Of a DNA stretch of 64,000 nt, positions 20,680 through 28,923 are shown piece by piece. The notes beneath the pieces were generated by a model, which was not told the origin of the DNA, did no database searches, and saw only the letters and a program-made list of their open reading frames with translations. Position 1 is the first letter of the stretch, and every line of letters starts with the position of its first letter. A program made the position numbers and the translations under genes. This stretch comes from an uncultured Acidobacteriota bacterium. Lineage in GTDB: Bacteria; Acidobacteriota; Thermoanaerobaculia; Multivoradales; UBA5704. The stretch lies in the NCBI GenBank assembly GCA_963770895.1, contig CAVYRF010000001.1, positions 1,472,001-1,536,000 on the forward strand. The letters run 5' to 3'.

Positions 20680-21170
20680 AAAATGGCCCGTTGGTCTGCG
20701 ACTCCGGCCCCTTGATCGCCTTGGCAAGCGTCGCGCAACTTGATCTCTTGCCGGCGCTCTACCGTAGGGTGATCGTACCCGAAGCGGTCATCCAGGAAGT
20801 CTCGCAATCTGGCGCGGGTCGCGTAGGTGGTGCCGAGATAGCAGCGGCAAAATGGATCGAAGCTGTGCCATTCGAGCAGCGCACCTCTCATCCACTGCTG
20901 ACCGCCGAGTTGGGTAGCGGGGAAAGCGCGGTCCTTAACATTGCGCTGCTCCACCGCGCAGAGCTGGTTCTGATCGATGAGCGGCGAGCGCGACGCATCG
21001 CGGCACAGATCTTTGGCCTCTCGGTCAAAGGCACAGCCGGCATCCTTGTGGAGGCCAAGCGCAACGCTCTGGTCTCCAGGATTCGGCCCTTTCTCGAATC
21101 GATGGCGCAGAAGGGATACTACCTTTCCCCCCTCGTTGATCAAGGCCGCCTGCTCGGCAGCAGAGGAATA
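20676..21170 (+). CDS. DUF3368 PIN-domain toxin, +1 frameshift near the C-terminus
   Basis: VCDSGPLIAL, LGSGESA, LIDERRAR, GTAGIL; one extra C in the run at ~21127 relative to the paralogous remnant at 28787-28852. Confidence 0.8.
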
Positions 21171-21600
21171 GCTGTCAGCGCTATGACCTTGCGCGTGAGC
21201 TAAATTTTTCGATGCATCGAAAATTGAAGCTGCCGCGCAAGTAGCGCGAATCGGAGCGTGCTCCCACAGTCACGATGCACACGGATTTGGGGGGGACCCT
21301 GGGCCGATCAGGATTAGCTGCCAGGCCCGGCCGGCGACGCGTCGGTGATCGTGCCGCGAAACGTCTTCTTCACCTCGTGGATTCGCCGCAGCTCCCGGGC
21401 GTTCTTCAGCCCGAGCAGCACCAGCAGCTCGCGAGCCCGGTACACCGGCCGCGGCTCGCCCGGATCGATGCACGCGTCGTCGCTCGCGAACACCACCGCC
21501 TCGTCCAGCACCTCGCTCCACACCTCGACCACCAGGCCCGCACAAGCGAAGTCCGCCAGCTGCATCGCGCACGGATCGCCGGCGAGCAGCCCCGCGCCAG
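21105..21600. repeat. ~500-bp inverted repeat of ~28260-28852
   Basis: Reverse-complement similarity covering the toxin 3' end, the intergenic palindrome and the 3' half of the 'MDARDLL' gene. Confidence 0.85.
21206..21223. promoter_or_regulatory. Perfect 18-bp palindrome TTTTCGATGCATCGAAAA (copy at 28735-28752)
   Basis: AT-rich palindrome unchanged in two otherwise diverged copies; function unknown. Confidence 0.5.
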
Positions 21601-22862
21601 ACACCCCGAGGCTGGTTGGGTGAAGGTGTAAGCGGATGGATGCGCGAGACCTGCTGGCGGAGCTGGCGGCGCGCGGGGTCGAGGTCCGCGCGGCTGGCGA
21701 GGATTTGGAAATCCGGCCGGGTGGGGCGGTGCCTGCGGAGTTACTGGCGGGGTTGCGGGCGCGCAAGCCGGAGGTGCTGCGACGGCTGGCGCGGCCGGCG
21801 GTGGGCGACGCTCTGGGGGGAAGTGTCGGCGTGCAGTGCGTATTCCGGTCGAAGGCGACCACCGTTTCCGGTCGCAAGGCGACCACTGATTCCGACGGAA
21901 GGCGACCACCCATTCCAGTCTGAAGGCGACCACTTTTAGCCCTTGGCCCGGAAGGGTGGTCGCCATCCCCGGAAGGGTGGTCGCCTTCGATCGGAATCGA
22001 GATCGAGAAGGGCGGTGACAACAAGCGGCGGCTCCGTACCTCTGGCATGCTCGTCTCCATCGACGAAGGGAGCGAGATGCCGGCACGGAGAGTGAACGTG
22101 AGAAAGATTCGAGAGATGTTGCGATTGCTGTGGGTCTGCGGTCTGAGCCAGCGGCAGGTGGCGGACTGCTGCGGGATAGGCAAGACGACGGTTGTGGAGT
22201 GCGTGGCCCGTGCGCGCAGGAGCGGGCTGGACTGGTCCGTGGCGGCGGAGCTGGGCGAGGAGGCGCTGGAGCGTCGGCTCTACCCGGTGGTCGAGCAGGT
22301 GCCGGCGGCGCGACGGCCAGCGGTGGACTGGGCGGCCGTGCACAGCGAGCTCAAGGGCAAAGGGGTGACCCTGTCGCTGCTGTGGGAGGAGTACCGGGAG
22401 AGGGAGCCTCACGGCTACGGCTACAGCCGGTACTGCGAGCTGTACGGCCAGTGGCGGGGGCGGGTGGACCTGTCGATGCGCCAGGTGCATCGGGCTGGCG
22501 AGAAGCTGTTCGTCGACTACTGCGGCGCGACGGTGCCGGTGGTCGACGCCGGCACGGGAGAGGTGCACGCGGCGCAGATCTTCGTGGCGGTGTGGGGGGC
22601 GAGCAACTACACCTTCGCGGAGGCGACGTGGAGTCAGGGATTGGCGGACTGGATCGGCTCGCACGTGCGGGCTTTTGAGTTCGCCGGCGGCCTAACCGAA
22701 ATGGTGGTTCCCGATAACTTGAAGTCGGCGGTCAGCCGGCCGTGCCGGTACGAGCCGGAGCTGAACCCTACCTATCACGATTTGGCGTTGCACTACGGCG
22801 TGGCAGTGATGCCGGCGCGCGTGCGGCGGCCCCGCGACAAAGGCTGCGCTTCATACTGCACC

Positions 22863-24944
22863 TCATCCGTTGGAATCGGTGCGACTTGCGTGCCGCACCG
22901 TGGGCCGCAAGGGCTGCGGCTTGTGTTTGAATTTGATAGGCCGGTCGGCACCTGGAAGCTCAAAAAGGTGCTGGCCCTTGTCGTTGTATGCATGGGCCTT
23001 GAGCAGGCCCGCGCGGCGCCAGAGCTTGATCGTGCAGGGAGTGACGTTGAGCCGCTTGGCGATCTGCGTGATGTCCATCATACCCGCCGCCCGAAGACGA
23101 TCGTATCGGCTCCGGAGCTTGTATTCCAAGCGGATTCGATAGACGAATACCGGCTTGAAGTTCTTGCCACTGCCTGACCGGAAAGCTTGTTGGTTGAGGA
23201 TGGCTGCGATCTGTTTGTCGGTATGATGGTCGAGCAACCTGTCGATTTCCGCCACCACCTCCTTGCTGGTTTGAGAGATCTCCCAAACTCGCAACGCGGG
23301 CGGGAGGCCCAGTGTCGTGGTTGCGCCACCGCGGAAGCGAATCTGCGCCGTGATCTGTGTTCCTCTGCTGAGTGTTACATCTTCGATGAGAAGCCTGACC
23401 ATCCGTTTGCGGTCGCGATCCGTCGTCGTTGGCTCGTACCAGAGCTTCGTCAGATCCGTAGCGAGGGCGAGGATGCGCGAGCGTTGCGCTTCATCGATAA
23501 CTATTGTCTCGGCTTTCCGCCGTCGCTCATACTCTTCCTGAGCACTGGTGAGCGTCCGCAGCTTCCGGTTCCAGTCAGCCTCGAGTTCGTCAGCCACCAG
23601 ACGATTATCGGGATCGACCTGCATGAAACGCCGGCGTGCCAGGTCCGCCTCATAACGAGCGCGCTCGACCTGTCGAGACCATAGCCGCTCCGCTTCATCG
23701 GCGCGCGACTGAAGCTGCTGCTGAACCGTCAGCGTGGCCTCGAGAGCCATCGGCGTCATGGCTTCGACGAGGAGGCGCCCGACCGCCGCATCGATGTGGG
23801 TGCCCGAGATGCTCTGGCATAAGGGTTCGCCGCGCTCGATGCCTTGTCGCTGGCAGGTGTAGACAGTTAGGCGCTTGCCGTAGCTGTGGTTGTAACGGAC
23901 CGTCATCCGTTCACCGCAGACACCGCAGATCACCAAACCCTGGAGGAGTGCTGGCCCTTCTCGGGGAGGGCTCTTGCGGCGTTCGCTGCCTTGGGCTTGC
24001 GAGTTCTCGCGCAGGCGTCGCTGGTTTTCCTCGAACTCGTCCCAGGTGATGTAGCCTGGGTGCGAATCGCGGATGAGTGCGGTCCACTCCTCCCGCGGCA
24101 ACCTCTCAAACGTGCCGCTGCGATTCCCATAGTGGCGTTGTCGACTACGGCCAAAGAAGAAGGCTCCGGCAAATCGCGGATTGTGCAGCACCCAGAGGGC
24201 ACGGGAATGCTGCAGATCTCCCCAGATCACCTCACCTTTGGCCGGCCCCGTCCGCACGCGGTGAGGAAACCGGAGTCCCTGTGCGCGGAAGGCCTTCATC
24301 GTTCCGGTCGCCGAACCTGTGCGGCGGAAAATCTGGAAGAAGGTGCGGATCGTCTCCTGCACCTGCTTGTCAGGATCGAGAATAACGCGCTGTTGAGCGT
24401 CGTAACGGAAGCCAATGGGAAGTGGCGACTCAAGCTCGCCGCGGCGCGCCTTGTTGAGGATGCCGCCCCGTAGTCGCGCCCGCAGCACGTGCAGCTCCGC
24501 CTCGCTCATGGTGCCCTTGAGGCCAAGCAGAAGGCGGTCGTTGAAGTGCGCGGGGTCATAGACGCCATCTTCGTCGAGGATGAGCGTGTCGCTGAGCGCA
24601 GAGATCTCGAGGAGCCGATGCCAGTCGGAGGAGTTCCGCGCCAGCCGCGACACCTCGAGCCCCATCACGATTCCCGCGCGTCCCATGCCGACATCGGCGA
24701 CAAGTCTCTGGAAGCCGTCGCGTCGCTCCGCCGACGCGCCCGACTGCCCCTGGTCGCAGTCAATGATGATGATCTGCTCCTGGGCCCAACCTAGCGCTAC
24801 CGCTCGCTGCCTCAGGGCGTACTGGCGATCGGTACTTTCGGTGTTCTCGAAGACCTGTCGCAGCGTGGACTGCCGGATGTAGAGGTAGGCGTTTCGCTTA
24901 AGGTGTCGGGCCGTGACCTTCTGGTGCGCTTCGTTGCCCATCAT
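22863..24944 (-). CDS. Large serine recombinase (resolvase, recombinase, Zn-ribbon and coiled-coil domains)
   Basis: AYLYIRQST catalytic Ser; EVSRLAR; LQGLVICGVCGERM; VDPDNRLVA. Confidence 0.95.
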   Translation of the reverse strand: MMGNEAHQKVTARHLKRNAYLYIRQSTLRQVFENTESTDRQYALRQRAVALGWAQEQIIIIDCDQGQSGASAERRDGFQRLVADVGMGRAGIVMGLEVSRLARNSSDWHRLLEISALSDTLILDEDGVYDPAHFNDRLLLGLKGTMSEAELHVLRARLRGGILNKARRGELESPLPIGFRYDAQQRVILDPDKQVQETIRTFFQIFRRTGSATGTMKAFRAQGLRFPHRVRTGPAKGEVIWGDLQHSRALWVLHNPRFAGAFFFGRSRQRHYGNRSGTFERLPREEWTALIRDSHPGYITWDEFEENQRRLRENSQAQGSERRKSPPREGPALLQGLVICGVCGERMTVRYNHSYGKRLTVYTCQRQGIERGEPLCQSISGTHIDAAVGRLLVEAMTPMALEATLTVQQQLQSRADEAERLWSRQVERARYEADLARRRFMQVDPDNRLVADELEADWNRKLRTLTSAQEEYERRRKAETIVIDEAQRSRILALATDLTKLWYEPTTTDRDRKRMVRLLIEDVTLSRGTQITAQIRFRGGATTTLGLPPALRVWEISQTSKEVVAEIDRLLDHHTDKQIAAILNQQAFRSGSGKNFKPVFVYRIRLEYKLRSRYDRLRAAGMMDITQIAKRLNVTPCTIKLWRRAGLLKAHAYNDKGQHLFELPGADRPIKFKHKPQPLRPTVRHASRTDSNG

Positions 24945-25252
24945 GTCGTCACTCCTCTCGGGGCGTAAGCCGACAGAGCCATTTCGGCAAGGAGCATGGC
25001 CACTTCGACTCGGAAGTCCTGTGGCATGAAAGATGGCTCCGCGGCTGATCGCCGAGCCCCCGCCTCGGACGGCCTGATCAGCGCCGCGCACCTCTCCATC
25101 CAGGCGGCCATGCCACTGCGGATGAACAATCCCCATCCAACCTCACGACTTGACCCGGCAAGACGACCGAGCGCGCTACGCCGGAGATCCTCGTAGCCAG
25201 CGATCAGGGCATCTTGCGCTCCCGCCATGACAGAGTCGGACACGGAGGTCAC
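24941..25252 (-). CDS. Conserved small protein of the recombinase element
   Basis: YEDLR..GWGLFIRSGMAAW; 4-bp overlaps with both neighbours. Confidence 0.75.
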   Translation of the reverse strand: MTSVSDSVMAGAQDALIAGYEDLRRSALGRLAGSSREVGWGLFIRSGMAAWMERCAALIRPSEAGARRSAAEPSFMPQDFRVEVAMLLAEMALSAYAPRGVTT

Positions 25253-25716
25253 CGTCGTTTTTTTTCCAGCCGACGCAGCGCACGCTCGATGCTGCGGGGA
25301 TGAACCTCAACACCGAAGCGTTCCTTGACCAGGGGCACGAGCGCCGCCGCGGTGAGCGAGAGGTCGGCCCCCCGCTGCTCTTCAATAAAGGCCATCACGT
25401 CCGGGCTGAGCTTATGAGCCTCTCGCGGCCCGCGCCTGCGTGGCAAGAGGCCAGCGAGCCCGCCGTCGGCGAAGGCGTCGCGCGCCTTGTAGAACGAGGG
25501 CCGCGAGAAGCCGAAAGCCTCTGCCGCTTCGGCGACAGGCGCCTCGTCGACCTGCGCACGCCGGATCATCTCGTACTTGACCTGGAGAAGATCTCTTGGA
25601 TCGAAGAAGTCCGACCGTGCGAAGAGCTCGTCGGTGACGCGCTCCGGCCGCGGGTTGAGGGTCCGGCGCTCCCGCAAGGCGGCGAGCTTCGGATCGGAGG
25701 GCTTGCGGTCTGGCAT
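25249..25716 (-). CDS. Helix-turn-helix protein of the recombinase element
   Basis: FFDPRDLLQVKYEM..FGFSRPSFY..GLLPRRRGP..VHPRSIER. Confidence 0.85.
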   Translation of the reverse strand: MPDRKPSDPKLAALRERRTLNPRPERVTDELFARSDFFDPRDLLQVKYEMIRRAQVDEAPVAEAAEAFGFSRPSFYKARDAFADGGLAGLLPRRRGPREAHKLSPDVMAFIEEQRGADLSLTAAALVPLVKERFGVEVHPRSIERALRRLEKKRR

Positions 25717-25888
25717 CAGTGATCTCCAACATGTGTAAGAGGAATTATGCCGTCTATCTAGAGCACAGTCAAGCCCCCGCGACGCGCAACTACGTAATCT
25801 ACGGAGATTGCTGTGCTTTCTCTGGGCACGCCTATGCGTTTTGAAACCGAGTGCGGCGGCATAGTTCCCTTGACACTAGCGGCATAAT

Positions 25889-26198
25889 TTACTTTACTCT
25901 TGCTTCGTCTTTAAGTTGGGTAATGAGGTTAGCCAGCCGCAGGAGATCCTCCGTCCTGAACCGGCTCTGGCCGGCCGCCATCACCCGGAATGGGTCCAGC
26001 GGCGCAACGTTGGTCCATCCGATGGGCATGTGGTGAAGCCGGCCCTTATCATCGAGGAAGTAGACGCGATCCTCGCCCCACGCCTGCTTGTACTCCACCA
26101 GTTCGAACTCGCAACCAGACAAGGGATGGAACGGGTGTGTCACTCGAACAAGCGGCCGCACATCTGTTGAAGCTGCTGTAGTTGACTGCCTTCTCCAA
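25889..26198 (-). CDS. DUF5372 (Y4bD-like) protein, open to the element boundary
   Basis: [25 protein letters not shown]; no RBS+ATG in the integrated state (only a GTG at 26161). Confidence 0.75.
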
Positions 26199-26987
26199 GG
26201 CCAAAGTCGAGGTCGGCGTGCAGGTGGTCGAGCGCTGGATCCTGGCGCGTCTGCGGCGCCGGAAGTTCTTTTCTCTTGCTGAGCTCAACGAGGCGATTGG
26301 AATGCTTTTGATACGCTTGAACGAGCGTCAATTCCGCAAGCTTGAGGGCTCGCGCCGGTCGCTCTTTGAGAGCATGGAGCGGCCGGCTCTGCGGGCGCTG
26401 CCGGCGTCGGGCTTCAGCTACGCCGAGTGGAAAAAGGGGCGCGTCGTGGCGGACTACCACGTCGAAGTCGACGGCCACTATTACAGCGTGCCGTACCAGC
26501 TGGTGAGCCAGCAGCTGGACGTGCGGCTGAGCGCGAGAACGGTGGAGTTCTTCGCCAAGAGCAAGCGGGTGGCGAGCCATGTGCGCTGCTTTCGCCGGGG
26601 AGCCCACACGACGCAGCACGAGCACATGCCGCGGCCGCATCGGGCGTATGCGGAGTGGACGCCCGAGCGGCTGGTGCAGTGGTCGCAGACGACGGGGCCA
26701 TCGGTCGCCGGCCTGATCGAGCAGGTGATGTCGACGCGGGTGCACCCGCAGCATGGCTTCCGCTCGTGTTTGGGGATCTTGCGGCTCGGGCAGCGGTATG
26801 GCAACGAGCGGCTGGAAGCGGCGTGCCAGCTGGCGCTGGAGATCGAAGGCGCGTCGTTCCGCAGCGTGCGCTCCATCCTGCAGGGAGGGCTGGATCGGCA
26901 GATGGATCTGGCCGCCGAGTCGGCGCGGCGACCCCTCGTGCATGAGAACCTGCGCGGCGCTTCGTACTACGGCGGGGAGCAGAAGCC

Positions 26988-27740
26988 ATGCTGACCCATC
27001 CGACGCTCGACAAGCTCCAGGCCCTGCGGCTGACCGGCATGGCCAAGGGGCTCGAGGAGCAGCTGCAGATGACCGGCATCGACGAGCTTGGCTTCACCGA
27101 GCGCCTGGGGCTGCTGGTCGATCGCGAGATGACGGAGCGCGAGAACCGCCGGCTGAAGGACCGTCTCGCCAAGGCACGGCTGCGCCAGGCCGCCGCGGTC
27201 GAAGACGTGGACCTGCGCCTGCCGCGCGGTCTCGATCGGGCGCTGTTCCTGGCACTGTGCTCATGCCAGTGGATCACCCAACACCTTAACATTTTGATTA
27301 CGGGGAAAACCGGCACGGGGAAAAGCTTTCTGGCCTGTGCGCTGGCGCACAAAGCGTGCAGGGAAGGCTTCACCGCGCTGTATCACCGTGTGCCACGGCT
27401 GCTGTCCGAGCTTGCCACCGGCAAAGCGGACGGCCGGTACTCCAAGCTGCTGGCCAACCTTGCCCGGGCCGACGTCCTCGTGCTCGACGACCTCTGTCTG
27501 CATCCGTTCACCGACGCTCAGCGGCGTGATCTGCTGGAGATCCTCGAAGATCGCTACGGCAGGCGCTCGACGGTGGTGACGAGCCAGCTGCCGGTCGCCG
27601 CCTGGCACGATGCGATCGGCGACGCCACGCTGGCCGACGCCGTGCTCGACCGTCTGGTGCACAACGCCTACGAGCTGCCGCTTAAGGGCGAGTCGAAGCG
27701 CAAGGACAAGGCGCCGGCGCCGGCCCAGGGGCCGTCGTGA
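26988..27740 (+). CDS. istB: IS21 helper ATPase IstB
   Basis: Walker [32 protein letters not shown]. Confidence 0.95.
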
Positions 27741-28923
27741 CGCGATCGCGGCGCGCCGTGGCGGCGCCTGGTGCCCCCCGCCCCCCCGCGAGCCCCAGCG
27801 CCTCGCCTATGGCGTCCGGCGAGACCTCGACAGCGGCCGGCCGCCGCCCGGCCGCCCCACCGCCCGGCCCGTCCCCCACCCACCCCCACCACCCCCCAAC
27901 GCACGCATGGGCTGTGGAAGGTGCCGCGGCTGATGGAAACCGCGGACCCAACGTGGGCCGCCCGCGTCGCTACGCTCCGCTGCCCCCGCCCGCCGCGGCC
28001 CCCGGTCCGCCGTTCCCACAGCCGCTTGGAAACCGGCTCCCGGCCCCCCACCACACCCGCCCTCCACCACCCGCCCTCGCCGGTTACCACGACCTTCCAC
28101 AACCCCGGCGACGAGGTCATATACACTGAAAAAGGACCACAGGAGAAGCCCAAGCCGACCACCTCAACCAACCATGAGCCTCCGCTCACCGCCTCGCTCC
28201 GACGGGTGGTCGCCTTCCGTCGGAATGGGTGGTCGCCTTCGCCGGAATCCGCAGCGTGCAGCGCGGAGCTCCTCGCCGGCGATCCGTGCGCGATGCAGCT
28301 GGCGGATTTCGCTCGTGCGGGCCTGGTCGTTGAGGTGTGGAGCGACGTGCTCGGCGAGGCGGTGGTGTTCGCAAGCGACGAACGCGTGCATCGACCCGGG
28401 CGAGCCGCGGCCGGTGTACCGGGCGTGCGAGCTGCTGGTGCTGCTCGGGCTCAGGGACGCTTGGGAGCTGCGGCGAATCCACGAGGTCAAGAGGACGTTT
28501 CGCGGCACGATCACCGACGCGTCGCCGGCCGGGCCTGGCGGCTAATCTTGATCGGCCCAGGGGCCCCCCCTAATCCGTTTGCATCGTGACTGTGGAAGGA
28601 GGCGCTGGAGATGCGCCAGACGGGCCGCGGCGGCGCGCGGGCGCGGGAATGACCTGTCGCTTGGTCGGTAAGCGGGCTCGATCGGCACCGCTCCGAGCAC
28701 GCTCCGATTCGCGCTATTTGCGCGGCAGCTTCAATTTTCGATGCATCGAAAAGTTTAGCTCACGCGCAAGATCATGGCGCTGACAGCTATTGCTCTGCCG
28801 CCGAGCAGGCGGCTTTGATCAGCGAGGAGGAAAGGTAGTATCCCTTTTGCGCGAGCGGGGGCTCGGGACGAGGTGATGCCGTTAAATCAAGCTTGAATTC
28901 TGCAAGCGCGATATGCTGAATCA

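Follow-up and report, generated by a model that had tools for sequence, protein, structure and literature searches.

Where does a gene begin when no start signal precedes it? This question is raised by a mobile element found in a window of 64,000 nucleotides (nt), i.e., the whole stretch of DNA that was analysed, from an uncultured Acidobacteriota bacterium (coordinates given below without a locus handle are window positions). The element spans positions 22839–26198 (both copies of its 2-bp core included) on the minus strand and is embedded in the istA gene of an IS21 insertion sequence (IS). On the minus strand, from 26198 to 22839, it carries four genes oriented in the same direction, which are, in their integrated order, DUF5372, a helix-turn-helix (HTH) protein, a small open reading frame (ORF), and a large serine recombinase (LSR). 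The DUF5372 gene body (25889–26197, minus strand) matches PF17342 with an E-value of 3.7e-24 and 85 bits, against a cut-off of 25, over the model positions 1–77 of 78 (residues 7–83 of the GTG-started frame). The frame is open from 26197 to the stop codon at 25889 and contains in-frame GTG codons at 26161 and 26143, the latter being the start of the gene call on record. The body has no ribosome-binding site (RBS), and its start codon is located at the opposite end of the element. We consider it probable that the attachment site attP lies inside the DUF5372 gene, and that only the excised circle yields the full protein, a predicted LSR-binding cofactor.

The ends of the element are fixed by comparisons within the same genome, which harbors three copies of it (the window copy; L002, identical to it; and L003, differing by 1 nt) and two uninterrupted IS21 copies (L004 and L005), giving a unique element length of 3358 bp. 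The two uninterrupted copies cross the insertion point without any break, maintain the istA frame (…RDKAKVE…), and have CAA in common with the element ends. The host of L003 is the gene of another DDE transposase (…SPHQ|NGKQE…), and it shares only AA with the element ends; thus, the crossover dinucleotide is AA (read on the plus strand; TT on the minus strand), located at 22839–22840 at the recombinase end and at 26197–26198 at the DUF5372 end, as indicated by the L003 target and by the ends of related elements. It is known that LSR recombination is conservative, and for this reason the sequence of the circle junction is determined. The pattern of a conservative insertion was indeed found, i.e., AA at both ends of the three copies and a single CAA in the empty sites. 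An empty-site join was also retrieved in a Logan contig of the soil run X1, where position 22837 is joined to 26196 and 3358 bases are skipped.

The crossover can also be located from the target genes. When the target sites are rebuilt from both flanks, they show a continuous frame running through the third catalytic motif found in DDE (rve-type) transposases, as in …RPRD|KAKVE (IS21), …GNPYD|NAACES (IS3-like), …SPQA|KGRVER, and …RSPRA|NAYAER. In 131 of the 149 unique flanks, the core AA corresponds to the first two bases of a K/N codon, the catalytic E following four codons later; the figure for control positions is 6 of 5376. Since the rebuilt targets restore [K/N]xxxE, the crossover is fixed independently of the DUF5372 junction frame, and its earlier placement within CAA is both narrowed to AA and corroborated. 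The element is always antisense to the transposase gene, and its hosts belong to several IS families; judged from their insertion sites, the elements effectively parasitize insertion sequences, and a precise excision would restore the transposase gene. One clade (L083) has AT as the core at both ends; in it (L083 and L168), the target reads M-E-S-T-A-Q-Y-W from the core; instead of hitting the [K/N]xxxE motif, the insertion thus appears to fall on the start codon of a different type of gene. A decayed copy was detected in Adhaeretor mobilis (L067, 5750–7800), where a lone DUF5372 end is located at a transposase target and the rest has been replaced by an IS3-family insertion.

On the minus strand of the window copy, the LSR stop codon TGA (22865–22863) overlaps a GAGG sequence (22864–22861), which is followed by the spacer TGCAGT (22860–22855) and by an ATG codon (22854–22852). 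Joining the ends places GAGG-TGCAGT-ATG, overlapping the LSR stop codon, five codons 5' of the crossover and in frame with DUF5372. An earlier note on this DNA had claimed that the joined ends give TGAGG-tgcagt-ATG in the DUF5372 frame, and the sequence reads as claimed, the ends being now set by the copies and the empty sites. In order to see how far this arrangement extends, 160 DUF5372-encoding loci were added to the window, 80 of them from species-representative genomes and 80 from metagenomes, embedding Acidobacteriota, Actinomycetota, Planctomycetota, Pseudomonadota, Chloroflexota, Myxococcota, Gemmatimonadota, and other phyla. The HTH gene is located 3' of DUF5372 in 74 of the 80 genome loci, and the LSR gene comes next wherever the contig permits. 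At the recombinase end, the terminus of 71 loci consists of GAGG, TGCAGT, ATG or GTG, 11 nt, and TT, after which an unrelated flank begins; at the other end, 158 DUF5372 termini were retrieved (150 unique), with TT as the core in 140 of the 150. The 71 loci with both ends gave 65 unique junction products.

The circularization in silico of the homologous elements, which had been suggested as a check, revealed a start codon at the predicted position in all the 65 unique junctions (ATG in 48, GTG in 17, any other codon in none), preceded by GAGG in 59 of them. The junction frame is open through to the DUF5372 stop codon in 62 of the 65 elements; the three failures are L028 (where the motif detector missed a GCTACA variant), L068 (a 1-nt indel), and L141. 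In 61 of the 65, the AT-core clade included, one end has the same core as the other, and even the distant copy on the rhizobial plasmid of Sinorhizobium meliloti AK83 fits, with a GTG start. Eight loci having an LSR stop codon without a recognizable terminus (L023, L039, L053, L059, L069, L082, L086, and L156) were left out of these counts; L082 is cut by the contig end, and L059, with GTG, fits when inspected by eye. Relative to the start codon, the LSR stop codon varies in position (−8, −1 (as ATGA), +4, +11, up to +87) and falls in different reading frames; hence, the conservation of the start signals is not that of the LSR coding sequence. On a tree of 42 LSRs, at least 9 switches between ATG and GTG were counted, never to a non-start codon, together with at least 14 changes of the stop-position class. 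As far as the compared sequences tell, the junction arrangement is more than chance, its geometry and its ATG/GTG recurring in 65/65 elements with the frame open in 62/65.

The integrated copies show the complementary picture. The 145 in-frame unique copies do not contain any stop codon between the core and the HPFHP motif, and 114 of the 145 lack any in-frame ATG, GTG, or TTG 5' of the conserved N-terminus F-R-V-T-HPFHP. Following the frame into the flanks of these 114 copies, a stop codon without any start was found in 68, a chance start in 38, and the end of the contig in 8. The possibility that an internal GTG is a conserved start, which had been considered in advance, did not hold, given these 114 copies; moreover, the valine codon placed two codons before HPFHP (GTG at 26143 in the window) is free at its third base (entropy 1.64 bits) and is therefore not kept as GTG. 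Like the ends and the crossover, the conserved junction frame and the absence of starts in the integrated copies are read in the sequences themselves; together, the two lend support, at this level, to the earlier claim that the full DUF5372 protein would come from the circle only. As for transcription, a scan of the gene strand disclosed a sole promoter-like site, which is internal and upstream of the HTH gene, and none at the element ends. This putative sigma-70-like promoter (TTGACT-17-CATAAT, 25744–25772, minus strand) may serve the HTH/small ORF/LSR operon; it sits 3' of DUF5372 in the integrated order, and a similar promoter occupies the same intergenic place in 66 of the 145 loci. Because the promoter is downstream of DUF5372, this gene is the last of the operon in the circle but lies upstream of the promoter in the chromosome.

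The annotated N-termini of DUF5372 proteins are heterogeneous. Gene callers start the domain anywhere from residue 1 to residue 118 of the called protein. No junction-type N-terminus was found among the 120 DUF5372 homologues listed, nor in the 24 representatives whose domain starts near residue 18–34, the N-termini being derived from the flanks. As an example, in S. meliloti AK83 (plasmid pSINME01, L170, 4429–4806), RefSeq starts DUF5372 at an ATG of the flank, antisense to an IS21 istA gene, giving a chimeric product of 125 amino acids (aa).

What might such a protein do? It belongs to a large family, with 2290 clusters at E ≤ 0.001 and 1126 at E ≤ 1e-10 (at 50% identity). The predicted structure of DUF5372 has a mean predicted local distance difference test (pLDDT) value of 79.4 and a predicted template modeling (pTM) score of 0.50; it consists of four strands, a short helix, and a long C-terminal helix, with a disordered extension at the N-terminus. 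The predicted fold is a small SH3-like barrel ending in a C-terminal helix. The fold search retrieved generic SH3-like barrels only, i.e., NdhS (Z 6.1, root-mean-square deviation 2.1, 48 aligned residues), KOW (5.8), and Tudor (5.5) domains; the C-terminal domain of retroviral integrases matched with Z 5.2. No solved structure was retrieved by a profile search at E up to 10, the protein matched only the DUF5372 model in Pfam at E up to 10, and nothing was found for DUF5372 in PHROGs or NCBIfam. When the complex of DUF5372 with the LSR was predicted, a model score of 0.74 was obtained, versus 0.02 for the best control; this level is reached by 58 of 80 solved complexes and by 2 of 110 mismatched pairs. 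The runs, in which own alignments were used, agree in at least 79% of the contacts, with a partner pLDDT of at least 69. On the LSR, the predicted interface comprises the CxxC of the zinc ribbon (339–344), the segments 395–414 and 480–519, which flank a helical hairpin with its tip at 443–451, and the strand 534–542; on DUF5372, it comprises the invariant HPFHP motif and the C-terminal helix (76–99). DUF5372 is thus predicted to bind the LSR at the zinc ribbon and the base of the coiled coil, where directionality factors bind, and the idea of the earlier note that it may act as such a factor gains some support from this modeled complex.

On the whole, the element is probably a cut-and-paste mobile element driven by its LSR, with attP located within the 5'-terminal part of the DUF5372 gene that it carries. 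After excision, the genes would form a loop (promoter, HTH, small ORF, LSR, and DUF5372) in which the RBS and the start codon of DUF5372 would lie within a few bases of the LSR stop codon. Integration divides the DUF5372 gene five codons after its start, and the integrated copy retains a promoterless, start-less gene body at one end and an orphan start at the other. Since integration splits the gene, the full protein would be obtained only from the excised circle (or from a tandem dimer), together with the LSR. We infer that its translation from the circle would be coupled to that of the LSR and that, by binding at the site of directionality factors, DUF5372 would tell the LSR which DNA state the element is in, thereby affecting the direction of recombination. 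The direction we favor is that the LSR with DUF5372 would integrate, and that the LSR alone could excise. As a tentative proposal, possible rather than probable, DUF5372 might be an inverted directionality factor: the LSR alone would excise the element, and the DUF5372 made from the circle, and from it alone, would bind the coiled-coil base of the LSR and switch this enzyme to integration, destroying its own gene; such a self-resetting toggle would turn a one-way integrase into a cut-and-paste transposase, in a widespread hyperparasitic family homing to the catalytic-glutamate codons of DDE transposase genes. This inverted logic is favored over the classical one for two reasons: a classical factor made together with the LSR would block the integration of the circle that makes it, and, being made from the circle, it could not start excision from the integrated state.

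The classical alternative ranks second, and we regard it as unlikely. According to it, DUF5372 would still be made from the circle but would act as an excision factor with a timing role, keeping the circle out of the donor site for a while or waking sister copies. Its predicted binding site is that of the known excision factors, a genome with several identical copies could see them respond in trans, and an LSR sitting on attP, which overlaps the DUF5372 start, might shut the gene off after a burst. Yet the start codon is coupled to the LSR stop codon (by an ATGA overlap in 11 of the 65 elements and within 11 nt in many more), so that the two proteins would be made together, and a classical factor would then block attP × attB recombination; besides, it would have no way to begin excision in a fully integrated population.

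A different explanation concerns the DNA of the joined ends itself. In the circle, these form a quasi-symmetric site of about 50 bp centered on the core, as in LSR elements. The P arm (22841–22864, minus strand) includes GAGG, the dyad motif TGCAGT, ATG, and, up to 22841, the codons with which the junction gene begins, and the P' arm (26175–26196, minus strand), located within the DUF5372 frame, includes a 14-nt spacer and the dyad motif ACTACA (26182–26177). The whole attP is symmetric about TT (TGCAGT-14 nt-TT-14 nt-ACTRCA), AnTRCA being placed 14 nt from the core in both arms; GG at positions 1–2, GC at 8–9, and ACTGCACC at 15–22 are also common to both. One might argue that GAGG and ATG are merely part of a P arm bound by the LSR, that the integrated copy uses an internal or non-canonical start to translate DUF5372, and that the open frame is a by-product of a fixed attP geometry. 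The conservation of attP is indeed of the DNA type rather than of the codon type, the GG of GAGG and the dyad motif occur in both arms, and in-frame GTG codons are available at 26161 and 26143, where the gene call on record begins. We nevertheless hold this explanation to be improbable, on account of the features that distinguish the two arms and of the sequence beyond them. In 61 unique P arms and 142 unique P' arms, the start codon (positions 12–14, opposite strand) is C in 100%, A in 100%, and T/C in 72/28% of the P arms, and the same positions of the P' arm read TCA at 87%, 94%, and 69%; the GA of GAGG (positions 23–24) is kept in 95% and 93% of the P arms versus 46% and 54% of the P' arms. 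The start codon and the GA of GAGG are therefore conserved in the P arm only, and a non-start codon occurs in none of the 65 unique elements in spite of the ATG/GTG switches reported above. Nor does this explanation account for the 114 copies devoid of a start before the conserved N-terminus, or for a valine codon not kept as GTG. Lastly, the linker 5' of the domain shows a coding signature: across 48 disjoint pairs, the codons with a single change within codons 8–16 are synonymous in 55 of 132 cases in the DUF5372 frame, whereas the shifted frames gave 24 of 149 and 26 of 155, i.e., to judge from its substitutions, the linker evolves as a coding sequence. Among the length variants between the motif and HPFHP, four of the five kinds keep the frame. 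Within the domain, 301 of 398 and 434 of 636 single-change codons are synonymous; with these values of 68–76%, the hypothesis that DUF5372 is a decaying pseudogene was rejected.

The last alternative, in which DUF5372 would be an ordinary excision factor made from integrated copies by read-through of the interrupted transposase locus with a start supplied by the flank, would be in line with the predicted binding where excision factors bind, with the ATG, GTG, or TTG preceding any stop codon in the flanks of 38 of the 114 start-less copies, and with the RefSeq product of S. meliloti AK83, but it is very unlikely, given that 68 of the 114 flanks have a stop codon and no start, that the flank is the antisense of varied transposase genes without a conserved promoter or RBS, and that the start signals conserved at the opposite end would be left unexplained.

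Several points weigh against the main reading, in which DUF5372 is made from the circle and binds the LSR. The junction geometry is inherited, and the 62 open elements are not 62 independent trials. The two in-frame GTG codons of the window copy (26161 and 26143) might allow a shortened protein from read-through transcripts. The first seven codons past the crossover lack codon periodicity; judging from this pattern, their conservation is that of a recombinase-binding site, and part of the 'protein motif' there belongs to the DNA level. Regarding the protein, the best fold match (Z 6.1) is weak and, like all the others, below the level at which a match would mean more than a common arrangement, and the complex score of 0.74 is the confidence of a model and not a measurement. 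As for the circle itself, a contiguous attP, a tandem copy, or a terminal overlap was found in none of the 160 related loci, and the attP pattern was matched neither by viral contigs nor by the 401 genomes of the phylum that were scanned. In the Logan contigs of four runs holding the element (X1, X2, X3, and X5), no join of the element ends was present, such contigs dropping rare forms; they contained only the empty-site join (X1) and loose ends leading into other known flanks. None of the runs on record holding the element is an RNA run.

The conserved 'W..SST' peptide was discarded as a sign of coding: variation affects its second codon positions and spares the third ones, which are invariant, and, since it also mirrors the motif of the other arm, this stretch is a DNA site.

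The remaining genes of the element complete the picture of its organization. The LSR (693 aa, 22863–24944, minus strand), intact in the integrated state, contains Resolvase (PF00239, 5.9e-19), Recombinase (PF07508, 2.8e-13), and Zn_ribbon_recom (PF13408, 1.1e-09) domains, all above the cut-offs, and matches the PHROG 95 integrase (E 5e-52). It also bears an extra C-terminal MerR-like helix-turn-helix (residues ~616–661, 22863–23080), beyond the usual zinc-ribbon/coiled-coil region. The small ORF (103 aa, 24941–25252, minus strand) has no family match, nor any match in PHROGs or NCBIfam, and its relatives at 32–41% identity occur in many loci; its start overlaps the HTH stop codon (GTGA), and its stop codon overlaps the LSR start (ATGA). 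The HTH protein (155 aa, 25249–25716, minus strand) matches HTH_32, HTH_28, and HTH_29; it also shows a weak similarity, below the curated cut-offs, to IS630 (E 5e-13) and IS481 (E 1e-12) transposases in their N-terminal DNA-binding part, which is curious for an element targeting transposase genes. Directly 3' of the DUF5372 stop codon, two direct copies of TATGCCGC are located 23 nt apart (25856–25886, minus strand), a pair with the same spacing being present in 27 of the 145 loci under a strict pattern; these repeats may be an operator for the HTH protein. The repeat DNA is kept in other elements, and gene callers read it as a C-terminal tail (K..YAA.V....P) where the stop codon is missing.

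As for the host, istA (plus strand) is interrupted into a 5' part (22047–22840) with the rve domain and a 3' part (26196–26994) with Mu-transpos_C_2, the gene being intact in L004 and L005; istB (26988–27740, plus strand, IstB_IS21) follows 3' of istA. This IS21 is flanked by inverted repeats of about 500 nt, 92–93% complementary, at 21100–21600 and 28260–28860, and short repeated units of GGTGGTCGCC are located at 21842–21997 and 28190–28239, as expected for IS21 ends. In L002 (contig 2 of the same genome), the right flank is, over 400 nt, 77% alike, becoming identical near the joint, and the left flank is unlike that of the window copy (35%, ungapped); comparison of these flanks suggests either a different IS21 variant or an exchange between copies.

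LSRs are valued as one-way integrases, and how their direction is set is an active question. The element described here would offer a natural case in which a predicted binder of the coiled-coil base is hard-wired to the DNA state of the element by an attP placed inside its gene. It would also provide a simple and testable logic by which a conservative recombinase might drive transposition without futile cycles, i.e., a compact self-resetting switch that could be of use for engineering. For DUF5372, a family of unknown function with ~2290 clusters, this represents a working hypothesis; since its current annotations carry arbitrary or chimeric N-termini, the starts reported in databases are unreliable. 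The parasitism of insertion sequences is relevant, in turn, to IS dynamics, both on rhizobial plasmids and in soil bacteria. No relevant paper on DUF5372 or y4bA was found in a literature search that fell short of most subscription journals; with most of these journals outside the search, nothing was found on start codons at serine-recombinase junctions or on the targeting of transposase genes either.

Some known systems can be compared with the present one. In phage lambda, sib retroregulation relies on an RNA-processing site located 3' of int. The likeness is that the position of attP relative to a gene ties its expression to the integration state; the difference is that an RNA-processing site is involved there and a split coding sequence here. 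A second group comprises promoters formed in circles: junction promoters are known in IS911, IS2, and IS21, and a circle-specific promoter for TnpX of Tn4451/Tn4453 was reportedly described by Lyras and Rood in 2000. Further circle-specific promoters are Pcirc of ICEclc and P3'end of ICEKp1 (PMC13023037). In all these cases, the joining of the ends creates, as it would here, an expression signal present only in the excised circle, Tn4451 being also an LSR element; there, however, a promoter is assembled or relocated for the recombinase, whereas here the promoter is internal, and a translation start would be assembled with the coding sequence of a second protein. No junction promoter of the TnpX, ICEclc, or IS911 type was found in the present element, whose promoter-like site is internal (25772–25744).

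A third comparison concerns the directionality factors of large serine integrases, such as phiC31 gp3 (PMC5814800) and SPbeta SprB (PMC11722253). The SPbeta factor has an essential C-terminal helix, which packs between the hinge of the coiled coil and the second of the DNA-binding domains (PMC11722253). DUF5372 resembles these factors in being a small protein encoded beside an LSR and in being predicted to lie at the zinc ribbon and the coiled-coil base with its C-terminal helix in the interface. It differs from them in having no sequence relation, nor a clear fold relation, to any solved protein; in addition, the known factors are encoded by whole genes, expressed from the integrated prophage in order to trigger excision, and the DUF5372 gene is not whole when integrated.

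A close parallel is given by the SSV1-type 'suicidal' integrase genes of archaeal viruses, which are split on integration (PMC8371274). The two systems are alike in that attP lies inside a gene of the element, the whole product would be made only in the circle, and the DNA state would control directionality. As in the SSV1 type, the crossover falls within an ORF that becomes continuous only when the ends are joined (the frame is open in 62 of 65 elements, and 114 of 145 integrated copies have no start). The gene split here is that of DUF5372 and not that of the recombinase: the SSV1 type possesses a tyrosine recombinase that is itself split, whereas here a serine recombinase stays intact and an accessory gene is divided, and the cut falls only five codons after its start. 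The present element differs from the known systems in that the split gene is that of a predicted recombinase cofactor, that a translation start rather than a promoter would be assembled, and that its family homes to the catalytic-glutamate motif of transposase genes.

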